IMG/VR virus record: IMGVR_UViG_2526164631_000048
Span: 1-41,666 of that record
Reading direction: 5' to 3' (one strand)
Source of the DNA: a virus
Lineage: Duplodnaviria > Heunggongvirae > Uroviricota > Caudoviricetes
Length of the DNA: 41,666 nt
Part shown: piece after piece, positions 1,327 through 10,631 of the stretch
Numbering within the stretch: the stretch's first letter is position 1
Layout of the letters: each line of letters starts with the position of its first letter
Notes under the pieces: generated by a model
Told to the model about the DNA's origin: nothing
What the model saw: the letters and a program-made list of their open reading frames with translations, nothing else
The model's database searches: none
Program-made: the position numbers and the translations under genes

Positions 1327-1902
1327 TCATAATTCTGTGCTGGTGGCAGGAATTAATTTCTGCCAGATAGCGGAAACATATTTTGCCTGATGACGGGCAT
1401 CAGCCAGGGCGTTGTGCCGGTCGCCATCGAAAGGCATGTCCATTTTGGGGTCGAATCCGATGGAACGCCCAAGCGTAACGATCGTGCGTACATCGTGGTC
1501 ATTCCAGTACGCCCACGGGCAGATTTGTCCTGCTCGCTCGTAAGCTCCACGTAAAATTACGTTGTCGAAGGTGGCCCCGTTACCCCAGACTTTTAAATAT
1601 TTCGTATTGTCTGCGTGCCGGTTAATGAAATGATTTAGTTCTGAGAGAGCATCGCTGATCGACAAAGTATCATCAATACAGATTGCAGCTCGTGCTTCAG
1701 GGCTTTGTTTCAACCACCACAGGATGGTATCGCCGTCAGGTGTAGCTCCTTGCCCCATAGCACTTTCCAGGCTAACAACCGTATAGAATTCTTGTCCGAT
1801 GTCTCCGGTTTCTGGAGTGAAGAACACCGCGCCAATGGAAACGATCGGTGCATCCTTATTTTTCCCCATCGTCTCAAGGTCGATCATTAAGTTGTTCATC
1901 AC
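1327..1902 (-). CDS. DnaQ-like 3'-5' exonuclease (DEDD family)
   Basis: 191 aa; MIDLETMG Exo I motif near N-terminus; H..ALADA near C-terminus. Confidence 0.7.
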   Translation of the reverse strand: MMNNLMIDLETMGKNKDAPIVSIGAVFFTPETGDIGQEFYTVVSLESAMGQGATPDGDTILWWLKQSPEARAAICIDDTLSISDALSELNHFINRHADNTKYLKVWGNGATFDNVILRGAYERAGQICPWAYWNDHDVRTIVTLGRSIGFDPKMDMPFDGDRHNALADARHQAKYVSAIWQKLIPATSTEL

Positions 1903-2450
1903 TTCACCTCCTGCGGCGGTTCCGGTAGCGGCATCCAGTGAGTTGCTTGCTCAATACCATTACCCGGCTTAATCGTTGCATCTCCGCGCCGAAAGGTGCT
2001 TCCGGTATAGCGTGCGGAGCATATTAGCGGTTCAACCAGAGAGCTATCGAAATTCACCGAAATAAGCACGTTCTGGCCCTTTTCAGGCATTCGATCACTA
2101 CAGATTATCCAACTATCCGGAGTTCCCGGAGAGTTGCCATTTACATCGAAGTTTGGCTCTGCGTCCTGAACCAGGAGGATGTAACCATTCTTGGCTGTAT
2201 CAAGTTCTAACGCCTCGGTGACGGTGCCGAAATAGCGATTACCTAAATCAGCATCACAAGTGCTTACATCAATGGAAACTTCCATGCCTTCGATTAATTC
2301 TGGCAAGTTGTAAGTTTGGCTTATAGGCTCTGCTTCCAGCGATGCCAGTGCAATTTCATAAGCACGGCGCTCAATATTGTCTCGAACGTCCAGGCCGCCT
2401 ATGCGCTCTTTGATTTCTTTAATCAGTTCTTTGTCGGTAAAAGTGGTCAT
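1899..2450 (-). CDS. DUF551-domain phage protein
   Basis: 183 aa; C-terminal W.PLPEPP-type motif; overlaps neighbours by 4 nt. Confidence 0.55.
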   Translation of the reverse strand: MTTFTDKELIKEIKERIGGLDVRDNIERRAYEIALASLEAEPISQTYNLPELIEGMEVSIDVSTCDADLGNRYFGTVTEALELDTAKNGYILLVQDAEPNFDVNGNSPGTPDSWIICSDRMPEKGQNVLISVNFDSSLVEPLICSARYTGSTFRRGDATIKPGNGIEQATHWMPLPEPPQEVK

Positions 2451-2812
2451 GCTGTAGCCCCTTCTTGATATTTTTCAAACCAGAACACAACCGGGTCAGA
2501 TTTCATTTCAACCAATCCCATACGAACCAGCGCCTTGCCTTTCCCGGACGCAAGGAATTCACGACGACCATCACTGATAATTCGCCGATAATCTTCCAGG
2601 CTACTGCAATGCTTGTGCAGATTGCATGGGTGGCATGCCGGAACCATGTTGGATATATCGTCACGTTCCTGGTGAAGCATATTTCCAGCAAAACGAATGA
2701 CCGGTTTTACATGGTCTGCATGCCACTTTTCGCCAAGTTCGCAGCCGCAATAAGCGCAGCGACCACCGAACTTCATGCGCAGTTCTGCACGTTGTTTTTT
2801 CGTCAGTGCCAT
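2447..2812 (-). CDS. HNH endonuclease
   Basis: CAYCG..H.DH..P and CHPCN motifs; AAGGAAAG RBS before ATG at 2812 (ORF track extends to 2902). Confidence 0.7.
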   Translation of the reverse strand: MALTKKQRAELRMKFGGRCAYCGCELGEKWHADHVKPVIRFAGNMLHQERDDISNMVPACHPCNLHKHCSSLEDYRRIISDGRREFLASGKGKALVRMGLVEMKSDPVVFWFEKYQEGATA

Positions 2813-2813
2813 A

Positions 2814-3032
2814 TCAGCTTTCCTTATATGGATTAATTTTATTGTGCAGTGTGTTGAACGACGCCCATACCACGTCGTTATACAATTCAATAACTGGCTC
2901 AATTATTTTCCCGATTGCCCATACCAGAATTAACGGGGATATCGGTATCATCAACACGATAAACAGAATGAGAAACAAAAATTCTGTCGCTCTACTTCTT
3001 CGCGGATATTCTTTTCTGAATAATGTCGGCAT
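2814..3032 (-). CDS. Small hydrophobic (membrane) protein, 72 aa
   Basis: ATG at 3032 preceded by AAGGAGAG RBS; central hydrophobic stretch FLFLILFIVLMIPISPLILVWAIG. Confidence 0.4.
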   Translation of the reverse strand: MPTLFRKEYPRRSRATEFLFLILFIVLMIPISPLILVWAIGKIIEPVIELYNDVVWASFNTLHNKINPYKES

Positions 3033-3033
3033 A

Positions 3034-3225
3034 TCACTCTCCTTTAGTGCGCAAGTGGTTTTCCCAGCGGTTTTGCGCCGCGCTGGGCTTATCTTTGACT
3101 CCCTCTCTGGCAATTCCAGAATATAAGTACAACACCACACGGCGATTGCTAACTCTCAACCACTGGCAGGGATAGCAACGTCTGTATACACGGGAAATAA
3201 GCATCTTTGCTTTACGGTTTTTCAT
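3034..3225 (-). CDS. Small basic protein, 63 aa (paralog of upstream ORF)
   Basis: Starts MKNRKAK; ATGA stop/start overlap with upstream ORF; Arg/Lys-rich. Confidence 0.35.
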   Translation of the reverse strand: MKNRKAKMLISRVYRRCYPCQWLRVSNRRVVLYLYSGIAREGVKDKPSAAQNRWENHLRTKGE

Positions 3226-3398
3226 CTTACTGCGTACCCTTTCTTTCGCCTGTTCTGTGACGCTGTAGGCTTACGCTTTGCGGCAAAAGCCACCTGACCA
3301 AATGGATGGAGTACTGCTATCTTATGGTTGCTGATAACCAGCTCCACCACACGCACAGGTCGCTGTAAAAAAAGTCGTTTTGCTTTACGGTTTTTCAT
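3222..3398 (-). CDS. Small basic protein, 58 aa (paralog of downstream ORF)
   Basis: Starts MKNRKAK; AGGAGAG RBS 7 nt upstream; shares 20-nt 5' sequence and K-P-x-A-x-Q-N-R motif with 3034..3225. Confidence 0.35.
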   Translation of the reverse strand: MKNRKAKRLFLQRPVRVVELVISNHKIAVLHPFGQVAFAAKRKPTASQNRRKKGYAVR

Positions 3399-3570
3399 CG
3401 TTTTGCTCTCCTGCGTTTCTTTGCTGCACGTCGTGCAGCTGCAATACCGGTATGGCGGTGCTTTGGTGCCGGGATGATGTTGTCAGCCATCAGGACATGT
3501 GGCTTTGCAATTAGCGCAGAAGCCCAAAAACGAGTCGGGTACGGTAACAAGTCGATACATGCCACACGCA

Positions 3571-4200
3571 TTACTCACCTTCTTTGATGCGAATGCCAGC
3601 GGCGCGTGGCACATTAACTTCCACGATGCGCACAGTTGGTTTGTACATCTCAATCGCTGTCAGCCAGTCAGCGCCGGTCATATGCTTTTCTGCATCGCCA
3701 TTAGTCCATTGAACCGGCACACCAATAGCTTTCATCGCAATTTCTATTTCCCCGGCAATGGCGCTTTTCCCGCAACCAGTAAAACCAGAGACAACGACAA
3801 GAACTTCGCCTTTGGCTGGTTTTATTTCCCGTGCTTCCAGTTCTGCTATGCGCTTCTCTGCGGCTTCCAGCTTGGCTTCTGCATCTTTGGCTCGCATCTG
3901 CCAGTTGATAGCGATGTCGATAACGCTGTTAGCACAACTGGACTCGTTCTCTTCGGCAGCTTTAGCTTCAGAAAGCTCATCAAGCAATCCAAGAACAACA
4001 GTTGGCGTGGCGAGCGTGATAAAACGCATATTGCTCATATGCTCTTCATCGCTGACCTCATCTCCAGCCTCGACCGCTGCCATGTGCTGAACATAGCCGC
4101 TATCACAGGTATTCCAGATTGCCCCTGCCTCGTAACCCCATTCACCATGTAGTGCTTTTTCTGCCGCCTCACGCAGTGCCTGGTAATTAATTTCGCTCAC
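3571..4200 (-). CDS. Ead/Ea22-like protein
   Basis: 209 aa; coiled-coil AEAKLEAAEKRIAELEA; typical position in lambdoid early-left region. Confidence 0.55.
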   Translation of the reverse strand: MSEINYQALREAAEKALHGEWGYEAGAIWNTCDSGYVQHMAAVEAGDEVSDEEHMSNMRFITLATPTVVLGLLDELSEAKAAEENESSCANSVIDIAINWQMRAKDAEAKLEAAEKRIAELEAREIKPAKGEVLVVVSGFTGCGKSAIAGEIEIAMKAIGVPVQWTNGDAEKHMTGADWLTAIEMYKPTVRIVEVNVPRAAGIRIKEGE

Positions 4201-4889
4201 TGACAGCCTCCTTTGCGAAGCTCTGCAGCGAAATATACAGCTGCGGAAACAATAGCTGCATGTCGGTATTCACCATCAGAAAAGAGAGAATCTCCCTTAA
4301 GTGCATTGACGATACTCTGATGATTTTTTGCCAGCATCTCCACACCCTGCGCCCGTACTTCAGCCAGGAAAGCATCTGTAGCCGGGGTTTGCGGCATACC
4401 TCCGTCTGTTGCGCAGATATACGCATCAGATAGTTCATCCTGCTCGCCATCAAACACGTAGCAACTCTGTGCGATAAATTTATTTAGCCCCGCATTCTCC
4501 GCCGCCAGCGCCGCGCAATTACCCTCCAGCTCTGCAATGCGCTGTTTTGCAGCATCAAGTTCAATCGATAATTTTTCCAACTGCTCTTTATGCTTCTTGT
4601 ATTCCTGATATGCGTGCCAGGACTGACCTTTGCGCACACTATCAGTAATATCAGTAATCTGTTCTGGTGTTAGCGTGGTCAGTGGCTGTGCTGGGAAAAT
4701 CAGCACTTTCCCGGAATCCCAATCAAAACCAGCGTGAATTGACTGAACCTCAACTGAGGGTGTTGAACCAATGCTGCCAGGCGAATGAACAACGATCGTT
4801 ACATCCATATCGCGACGATGGCTGTGGTTGTTGGACAAAATACGATTCACCAACTCAGAAAATTTGGAGAATTTCATGCGGAGCCTCAA
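4197..4889 (-). CDS. Ead/Ea22-like protein (paralog)
   Basis: Coiled-coil AKQRIAELE; shares a near-identical ~50-aa block with 5293..5877. Confidence 0.55.
   Translation of the reverse strand: MRLRMKFSKFSELVNRILSNNHSHRRDMDVTIVVHSPGSIGSTPSVEVQSIHAGFDWDSGKVLIFPAQPLTTLTPEQITDITDSVRKGQSWHAYQEYKKHKEQLEKLSIELDAAKQRIAELEGNCAALAAENAGLNKFIAQSCYVFDGEQDELSDAYICATDGGMPQTPATDAFLAEVRAQGVEMLAKNHQSIVNALKGDSLFSDGEYRHAAIVSAAVYFAAELRKGGCQ
4371..4518. repeat. Direct repeat copy A (~150 bp, near-identical to 5538..5697)
   Basis: Long identical runs seen directly, e.g. gcgcagatatacgcatcagatag...gccccgcattctccgccgccagcgccgcgca. Confidence 0.8.
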
Positions 4890-5296
4890 TATGCAAAATA
4901 GACCGTTGCCACGCCGTTATAGTGATCAAACGATACGGCGTTTACTTCATAGCTGGCAGGGAGCTTCGAGCCGAGAACATATCCGGGCCACGTTTTCCAT
5001 GGAATTTCTCTACTCTCACTACCCCCATATACCGTACATCCAAGTGAACCTACAGCCTCGTCAGAACGTTTGCCGCATGTTATGAAACCTATATTTTTCT
5101 TGCTGGTCTTAATGGCGATTGGGTGAACACTGGCTGATGCATTGGCAGCACGCTGTGACTGTTGGTTTGCGATATTCGCAGAGTTCGCAGCAGCTACAGC
5201 AGCCATGGTCGCGGCGGTAGATGCCACAATAACTGCTGAAGCCTGCGCCTGTTGGGTAATGGTCAGCAATGCCGCCACAAAAATCATCTTCTTCAC
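4886..5296 (-). CDS. Secreted/periplasmic hypothetical protein with Ala/Ser/Asn/Gln-rich linker
   Basis: GTG start with AAGGAG RBS; signal-peptide-like MKKMIFVAALLTITQQAQA; two Cys in C-terminal part. Confidence 0.45.
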   Translation of the reverse strand: MKKMIFVAALLTITQQAQASAVIVASTAATMAAVAAANSANIANQQSQRAANASASVHPIAIKTSKKNIGFITCGKRSDEAVGSLGCTVYGGSESREIPWKTWPGYVLGSKLPASYEVNAVSFDHYNGVATVYFAY

Positions 5297-5877
5297 TTGT
5301 CAGCTCCTTTGCGAATCTGTTCCGCCCATTCTTCAAGGGATTTCTCCGCATATTCACCGGACAGGCCATCAATCGGGTGCGGTTCATTAGCCAACTCTTC
5401 TTTCGCTGACAGAATCATGCGCGTAACGTCGAAAACTTCACGTAAAGACTTATTGATAAATCCGTGGTTGAAAGCAGCAGCAAGACGGCTTGCGGTATAG
5501 TTAATCCCCTCGTTGCGAGCCGCCGCACGAATTTCAGCCAAAAAAGCATCGGTGGCTGGGGTTTGCGGCATCTTTCCGTCTATTGCGCAGATATACGCAT
5601 CAGATAGCTCATCCTGCTCGCCATCAAACACGTAGCAACTCTGTGCGATAAATTTATTTAGCCCCGCATTCTCCGCCGCCAGCGCCGCGCACTTGGCCTC
5701 AAGGTTATCAATCGTGATTCCAGCAGAACGGCACTCCCGCAACGCCGTTTCTAGTTTTGATTCAAGTTCACCGAACTTACGCACCAGGTATTCAGCATCC
5801 GTTTCATTCACTTTCAGATCTTGCGGTACACATTTCCCGAGAAGAAACCATTCCATTTCGAAAACATTCATGCGCAT
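5293..5877 (-). CDS. Ead/Ea22-like protein (paralog)
   Basis: Shares the block CAALAAENAGLNKFIAQSCYVFDGEQDELSDAYICA with 4197..4889. Confidence 0.55.
   Translation of the reverse strand: MRMNVFEMEWFLLGKCVPQDLKVNETDAEYLVRKFGELESKLETALRECRSAGITIDNLEAKCAALAAENAGLNKFIAQSCYVFDGEQDELSDAYICAIDGKMPQTPATDAFLAEIRAAARNEGINYTASRLAAAFNHGFINKSLREVFDVTRMILSAKEELANEPHPIDGLSGEYAEKSLEEWAEQIRKGADK
5538..5697. repeat. Direct repeat copy B (~150 bp, near-identical to 4371..4518)
   Basis: Same sequence block as copy A, seen directly. Confidence 0.8.
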
Positions 5878-8379: not shown

Positions 8380-8437
8380 GCCTGTGACATGTTTCTTTTA
8401 GATACATTATGTATCTCAAGGGTACATTGTCAAGTAT
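8380..8437 (-). promoter_or_regulatory. Candidate OL/pL region
   Basis: Palindrome GATACAttaTGTATC (8401..8415) and GGGTACA motif shared with the OR region; position left of cI terminator. Confidence 0.3.
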
Positions 8438-10357: not shown

Positions 10358-10631
10358 TTCTGCCATTCCGGGACGTTACACTGTTCAGGCACCTTATAAA
10401 GCGGGTGCCGGGATTGGCGTCCTGGAATTGATCAAGGCGATATATGACGCGCCAGCGTCTTTTTTATCGTCCGCATTTGCTCACATCAAAGTTATGGTGG
10501 GCTGGGCGGGGGCATCGAAAGATGCGCCGGTTTCCTTGATCACCGGTTACGCCAACCCCGTTCAGTTCACCACCAGCGAAATTGGCGTTTCCGGTGGTGG
10601 AAGTATTTCACCGATCAAGGAGGCTGCCATC

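Follow-up and report, generated by a model that had tools for sequence, protein, structure and literature searches.

Tandem small basic genes in the putative PL-type early operon of an Escherichia coli prophage

Between an ead/Ea22-like gene and a predicted HNH endonuclease gene, a temperate coliphage genome carries a chain of tiny ORFs that overlap at their stop and start codons and encode strongly basic products. This locus raises the question of whether such short ORFs are genuine genes, why two of them begin with the same residues, and what their products might do for the phage. The stretch of DNA analyzed here (the window, 41,666 nt) is 100% identical to positions 829742-871407 of NZ_CP066032.1, in reverse orientation, and is an E. 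coli prophage integrated at dusA.

Setting of the small genes in the prophage

The features on which the following analysis is based are listed in the order in which the minus strand is read.

8406-8433, minus strand: promoter-like site TTGACA-16-CATAAT (11/12), from a consensus scan only, directly 3′ of the LexA-family repressor gene
3571-4200, minus strand: ead/Ea22-like gene, 209 aa, GTG start (Pfam PF13935, E 3.8e-15)
3395-3571, minus strand: ORF A, 58 aa, pI 11.9, arginine-rich C-terminus (phrog_13831; WP_001261528.1)
3379-3399, minus strand: 21-nt block GATGAAAAACCGTAAAGCAAA at the B start, with an identical counterpart at the C start
3222-3398, minus strand: ORF B, 58 aa, phrog_1380, "SNHK" body type, internal-copy tail QNRRKKGYAVR-stop (WP_000797289.1)
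3227-3258, minus strand: conserved internal-junction sequence in the 3′ tail of B, just before ATGA, with a 32/32 match to a type I-F spacer of strain LF82
3206-3226, minus strand: 21-nt block GATGAAAAACCGTAAAGCAAA at the C start, with an identical counterpart at the B start
3034-3225, minus strand: ORF C, 63 aa, phrog_1380, "SNRR" body type, terminal-copy tail QNRWENHLRTKGE-stop (WP_071783682.1)
2814-3032, minus strand: ORF D, 72-aa DUF4014 protein with one hydrophobic helix (DUF4014 E 1.4e-24; phrog_1832)
2447-2812, minus strand: HNH endonuclease gene (predicted), 121 aa (PF01844; phrog_2118, E 8.8e-57)
1899-2450, minus strand: DUF551 gene, 183 aa, whose start overlaps the HNH stop (ATGA) and extends the coupled gene chain

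The site at 8406-8433 is a putative PL-type promoter that, judging from its consensus match, would drive a minus-strand early operon of ~7.4 kb. The co-directional gene run of this length ends in an excisionase-like gene (PrtN family), which is followed by a terminator at 990-1007. An earlier note on this DNA had placed the small ORFs in an early-left operon, and the arrangement agrees with this assignment: the run lies on the repressor side and reads toward xis, as a PL-like operon does, between the promoter-like site and the terminator. ORF D matched the Pfam model DUF4014 above the gathering threshold (86.7 bits, cut-off 23.2; residues 2-71 of 72), and the product of the neighboring gene is predicted to be an HNH endonuclease, its PF01844 score (28.7 bits, cut-off 21.4) likewise exceeding the gathering threshold.

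As described in that note, the hydrophobic ORF D and the HNH gene lie downstream of the small ORFs, and the A/B and B/C junctions are ATGA stop/start overlaps. D and the HNH gene each start at a TGAtATG junction. Along the whole chain the junctions read TAATG, ATGA, ATGA, TGAtATG, TGAtATG, and ATGA, with Shine-Dalgarno (SD)-like sequences in the last codons of the upstream genes. The ead stop overlaps the start of A as TAATG, and the last ead codons (K-E-G-E) contain the SD for A; ORF B has an ATGA overlap at both ends, and the last codons of C contain the SD AAAGGAG for the next gene. In the ten consecutive genes from 5296 to 1327, all junctions are overlapping, abutting, or at most 8 nt apart; tight stop/start coupling is shared by this ten-gene run and is not peculiar to the tiny ORFs.

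Further observations were made elsewhere in the window. Two minus-strand ORFs of 230 and 194 aa (4197-4889 and 5293-5877) have a 96-residue segment in common (64% identity, E 4e-39), which includes a near-identical stretch of 56 residues. The 194-aa ORF is intact in the window, and RefSeq has only a 41-codon pseudogene fragment at its position. On the plus strand, matches above the Rfam gathering score were obtained for the Hfq-binding RNA isrK (10389-10465) and the C4 antisense RNA (10490-10577), both in the immunity/replication-side region of the prophage.

Extent and coding status of ORFs A, B, and C

The first small ORF had been described as a 31-aa peptide (3395-3490) starting with the ATG at 3490. 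This delimitation had to be revised: the 31 residues form the C-terminal portion of a longer conserved ORF, 58 aa in length, with its start at 3571. The upstream start has the TAATG overlap with the ead stop and the SD GAAGGTGA, and the internal ATG at 3490 lacks an SD. Codons 1 to 27 of A are under purifying selection (dN/dS 0.20), and codon 1 varies across alleles only between ATG and GTG. The 58-aa product matched the phrog_13831 profile over its full length (residues 1-58 of 58, E 3.1e-40), and the same form is the RefSeq gene call. Internal initiation would be conceivable, since Met28 is conserved in the 58-aa alleles of A; however, the allele of phage 933W, which is 51 aa long, has no internal Met. 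In view of the SD, the selection on codons 1 to 27, and the restricted first codon, we regard a 31-aa peptide in place of the 58-aa protein as very unlikely.

An energy scan predicted an RNA hairpin at the ead/A junction (3557-3614, minus strand; -34.1 kcal/mol, z -3.13, from the scan only). Within its inner stem of 13 bp, the end of ead is base-paired to the G of the A start codon and to the first four sense codons. The long stem was found only in loci that carry this ead allele, and other alleles have a shorter local hairpin around the SD and AUG. The predicted sequestration of the A start by this hairpin is an indirect hint that translation of A may depend on upstream translation.

The expectation that the small ORFs would be missed by routine annotation was correct only for old records (AF125520, 933W), which omit them; PGAP annotates all three, and in RefSeq each carries the label hypothetical protein. 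Proteins exactly matching A, B, and C are present in NCBI and UniRef on 20, at least 1,000, and 21 contigs, respectively. Megablast-level matches to the A-B-C stretch were obtained in 658 of 5,426 complete E. coli genomes (chromosomes and plasmids).

Selection was analyzed in 80 loci with the B/C profile and 80 loci with A from IMG/VR, supplemented by phage records. Pooled pairwise Nei-Gojobori dN/dS ratios, which are indicative rather than exact because the pairs are phylogenetically non-independent, amounted to 0.22 in frame for the B/C family (1.10 and 0.99 in the shifted frames), 0.23 for A (4.39 and 0.83), and 0.24 for the DUF4014 gene D (0.50 and 0.78). For each of the invariant residues N3, R4, K5, A6, S26, N27, G37, K46, and N52, two to four different codons are in use. 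In the N-terminal heptapeptide, dN/dS was 0 to 0.03 with abundant synonymous change (pS up to 0.36). We had considered MKNRKAK as a mere nucleotide-level element and rejected this because its synonymous sites vary. Constraint on the bodies differed between types: dN/dS was 0.11 for the B-like type and 0.07 for the deeply diverged HK225-like type (pS 0.35), and the C-like and ILLVRRN-type bodies were more relaxed (0.62 and 0.44).

The alternative that the small ORFs are not genes, and are reading frames left open by chance in regulatory or intergenic sequence separating ead from DUF4014, would fit their short length (58-63 aa), the lack of a Pfam family for them, and their omission from old phage records such as AF125520. 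It is contradicted by the frame specificity of the selection (0.22-0.23 in frame against 0.83-4.4 out of frame) and by the varying codons behind the invariant amino acids. In addition, more than 100 distinct alleles preserve both the frames and the start positions, the stretch from ead to DUF4014 has no spare noncoding DNA, and an Rfam scan of positions 2300 to 4300 matched no RNA family. We find the chance-ORF reading hardly credible and consider it effectively refuted. The earlier note had made its case depend on conservation of the reading frames in related prophages; they are conserved and under frame-specific purifying selection, and on this comparative sequence evidence A, B, and C are therefore judged to be real protein-coding genes.

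Paralogy and array architecture of the phrog_1380 copies

ORFs B and C both begin with MKNRKAK, share a 5′ DNA block that is identical over 21 nt (previously given as 20 nt), and contain K-P-[TS]-A-[SA]-Q-N-R; the small proteins are very basic (pI 10.8-12.0). The proposal that B and C are diverged tandem paralogs was confirmed. Their similarity is not due to chance, because BLASTP aligned them at 41% identity (E 2e-7) and both belong to phrog_1380, which they match over their full lengths (B, residues 1-58, E 6.5e-23; C, residues 1-63, E 1.1e-33; 62-position model). Members of phrog_1380 are proteins of ~60 aa; M-K-N-R-K-A-K is their invariant N-terminus, S-N-[RH]-[RK] lies in the center, and S-A-A-Q-N-R is found close to the C-terminus. 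The motifs M-[KN]-N-R-K-A-[KR], S-N-[RH]-[RK], and A-x-Q-N-R are invariant or nearly invariant columns of the family alignment and are present in B and C. A simple local duplication is too simple an account of the pair, as both body types occur independently in many other combinations. The resemblance between neighboring copies had already been recorded in the GenBank entry of phiV10, which notes that p51 resembles p50.

From related loci, 111 distinct arrays were obtained. Each holds one to three phrog_1380 copies, with ATGA at every junction between copies, and the body types form at least eight combinations, with architectures that include (3), (0,3), (7), (1), (2,1), (4,1), (0,1), and (0,3,1); the combination in the window, (0,1), accounts for 3 of the 111. 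The B-like "SNHK" types were internal in 34 of 34 cases, the C-like and HK225-like types were the last copy in all cases, and two other types occurred in both positions. The class of the C-terminal tail predicted the position of a copy perfectly (26/26 internal copies and all terminal copies). The tail QNRR(K/E)KG.AVR-stop was found exactly where another copy comes next (26/26), and a QNRWKNH... tail exactly in last copies. The tail is set by array position, not by body type.

The two tails differ in what their codons provide. Those of the internal tail QNRRKKGYAVR-stop create the ATGA overlap with the next copy, and those of the last-copy tail, QNRWKNHLRTKGE-stop, read AAAGGAG(AG)TGAtATG, which supplies the SD and the junction for the next gene. 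All terminal tails (AAAGGAG(NN)TGAtATG) have the same SD nucleotides, and their final residue is E, D, or A. The same 3′ end is joined, exactly at TGAtATG, to at least eight different unrelated downstream genes. The upstream contexts of the arrays vary as well; A is sometimes missing, and the break lies at SD-like sequences. From the fixed SD nucleotides and the varied neighbors we conclude that the conserved gene ends are both protein motifs and junction or linker sequences of the lambdoid mosaic. ORF A directly precedes a copy of the B/C family in 79 of 79 informative loci, a linkage that could simply be a product of recent shared ancestry, given that the A alleles are at least 91% identical.

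These gene ends bear on a further explanation, in which the ORFs are translated and their products are unimportant: they would serve as translational relays or polarity-avoiding spacers, and their conserved ends would reflect nucleotide-level constraints (ribosome-binding sites, overlaps, and recombination linkers). The variable last residue next to a fixed AAAGGAG, a tail type that tracks the neighbor and not the body, cassette boundaries that coincide with SD-like sequences, and the weak constraint on the C-like body (dN/dS 0.62) are all compatible with it. Such relays should not, however, require a heptapeptide kept at dN/dS 0 to 0.03 despite plentiful synonymous substitution (pS reaching 0.36), a dN/dS of 0.07 to 0.11 in the bodies of types 0 and 7, or the internal invariant residues S26, N27, and G37, which lie far from any junction. 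We therefore judge it rather unlikely that the products are unimportant in this sense, and we retain the reading of A, B, and C as genes whose proteins are under selection.

A K/R-G-E C-terminus is present both on ead (KEGE-stop, 3571-3590) and on terminal phrog_1380 copies (TKGE-stop, 3034-3050), and its codons, AAAGGAG(AG), are the SD for the next gene. A "+GE motif" of unexplained significance has been described at the C-terminus of all Ea22 proteins (PMC7093339). Since the SD nucleotides are kept whether the last residue is E, D, or A, our data suggest that the Ea22 "+GE motif" is the footprint of a ribosome-binding site.

The internal junction also appears among CRISPR spacers. A 32-nt type I-F spacer of E. 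coli LF82 (repeat GTTCACTGCCGTACAGGCAGCTTAGAAA; locus L168, 1501-1532) is fully identical (32/32) to a segment in the 3′ tail of B. In the window, this protospacer (3227-3258) has the dinucleotide TC on its 5′ side; the canonical type I-F PAM is CC.

The position of the module differs between phages. HK225 (L004) and phiV10 (L003) carry this set of small genes 3′ of their replication genes, at a nin-like location, and Stx phages and the prophage studied here carry it in the operon on the PL side; it has therefore changed places between early operons. When 1.84 billion representative proteins were searched exhaustively with the family profile, only 48 matched, all of them small phage-type proteins or fusion artefacts. 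One match, P0093, was discarded as a spurious repeat protein. The apparent fusions phrog_9263, phrog_12350, P0027, and P0094 seem to have arisen from overlong ORF calls, from deletions, or from frameshifts that join the family to Ead or DUF551, and they offered no functional clue; a scan of genome contigs confirmed no locus. Distant phrog_1380 relatives were found on phage contigs of 60 to 72 kb, among small overlapping early genes (L166, 4001-4288; L167, 4001-4591), and a 69-aa member is present in Escherichia phage Av-05 (BFVD A0A076G5Z6). The family is therefore probably wider than the lambdoid prophages.

Possible functions and relation to known early-operon genes

An AlphaFold2 (AF2) model built from 24 sequences predicted a helix (residues 4-13), three strands (20-26, 29-34, and 39-44), and a second helix (49-61), with pLDDT 70.6 and pTM 0.40. 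This predicted fold had no significant structural neighbor. When A, B, C, and D were scanned against Pfam, NCBIfam, and PADLOC, the only match was DUF4014; the PADLOC defence models did not match A to D, and for the HNH gene only generic PtuB-like HNH matches were obtained. A search of PDB sequences with the family profile gave 0 matches at E up to 10, and a literature search for the A, B, and C proteins and their families yielded nothing. A likeness of ILLVRRN to the N-terminus of CsrA was dropped, as it is not conserved across body types and there was no Pfam CsrA match.

Our best guess, based on charge and context, is that A, B, and C encode accessory early products whose translation is coupled and which bind either nucleic acid or a partner of acidic character; nucleic acid binding would be in keeping with the pI of 10.8 to 12 and with two basic helices in the moderate-confidence model. 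Upon induction, A, B, and C would be translated by coupling to the upstream ead gene and would act as nonessential accessory factors, their basic helices most likely contacting nucleic acid or an acidic partner. The SNHK type, always upstream, possibly cooperates with the SNRR type downstream of it. The family as a whole behaves as a cassette, with one to three tandem copies per phage drawn from several body types.

Two more specific proposals can be weighed against this. In one, the family is a counter-defence or host-takeover factor of variable specificity, whose basic termini dock to a constant target, whose bodies track a diversifying host target, and whose arrays widen the range. Several very different body types between conserved ends and combined in arrays, the presence of the family among the accessory early genes of numerous temperate phages and phage-plasmids, and the higher dN/dS of the C-like and ILLVRRN-type bodies (0.62 and 0.44) speak for it. 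Yet no known defence-related model was matched, evolution within each type is still purifying, and ordinary lambdoid mosaicism explains the body variability equally well; we hold this proposal to be unlikely. In the other, the copies are combinatorial cassettes whose conserved coding ends would also serve as linkers for recombination and translational coupling, so that phages could build arrays from different body variants, SNHK always upstream of SNRR; the products would form homo- or hetero-oligomeric basic nucleic acid binders that tune early development or counter a host function, as other small exo-xis proteins do; this we consider doubtful, with a small chance of being correct. In contrast, it is likely that the locus lies in the middle of a PL-type early operon (an exo-xis analogue) of the dusA prophage and comprises three genuine genes, coupled to ead and including phrog_1380 cassettes, that encode accessory putative binders.

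The feature is ordinary, already catalogued accessory DNA of temperate coliphages and does not reveal a system of a new kind; what it adds, modestly and at the level of description, is the position-coded architecture of the arrays. Stx phages and other temperate coliphages have many small early genes that are uncharacterised; A, B, and C are among them, and their importance is modest. For studies of exo-xis-type accessory regions, it is useful that these genes are under selection and form position-coded arrays, and the C-terminal "KGE" tail, as the protein-level shadow of an embedded ribosome-binding site, would offer a simple explanation for the "+GE" motif of Ea22.

Known members of phrog_1380 comprise p50 and p51 of phiV10, Sap08 of VT2-Sakai, gp53 of HK225, and an unannotated ORF of 933W between L0069 and L0068. 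phiV10 has the same arrangement as the window, A plus two phrog_1380 copies, and the window does not differ essentially from the family; it holds one particular combination of body types. The exo-xis small proteins of lambda and Stx phages (Ea8.5, Orf63, Orf61, and Orf60a, with Ea22) modulate the lysis-lysogeny decision (PMC7093339). The A-B-C genes occupy the same position as those small genes, in the early operon on the PL side, with the recombination/ea22-type genes before them and xis after them, and in this prophage and 933W they directly follow the Ead/Ea22-like gene. As for the exo-xis proteins, the products are small and the genes accessory and mosaic, and the terminal phrog_1380 copy has a K/R-G-E C-terminus as in Ea22 (PMC7093339). 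No sequence or fold homology was detected between the A-B-C products and the lambda exo-xis small proteins (Ea8.5, Orf63, and others). Orf63 is a two-helix protein and Ea8.5 a homeodomain/zinc-finger protein (PMC7093339); the helix-three strands-helix fold predicted for phrog_1380 is unlike either of them. With regard to gene ends, homology at this locus breaks exactly at start codons or SD sequences, as in lambdoid mosaics. Lambdoid phages have mosaic junctions at gene boundaries and exchange modules at gene borders. Unlike ordinary lambdoid junctions, however, the conserved junctions described here are contained in the coding ends of the members of a single small gene family, and phrog_1380 differs from the general mosaic in forming tandem heterologous arrays with a position-dependent C-terminal tail.
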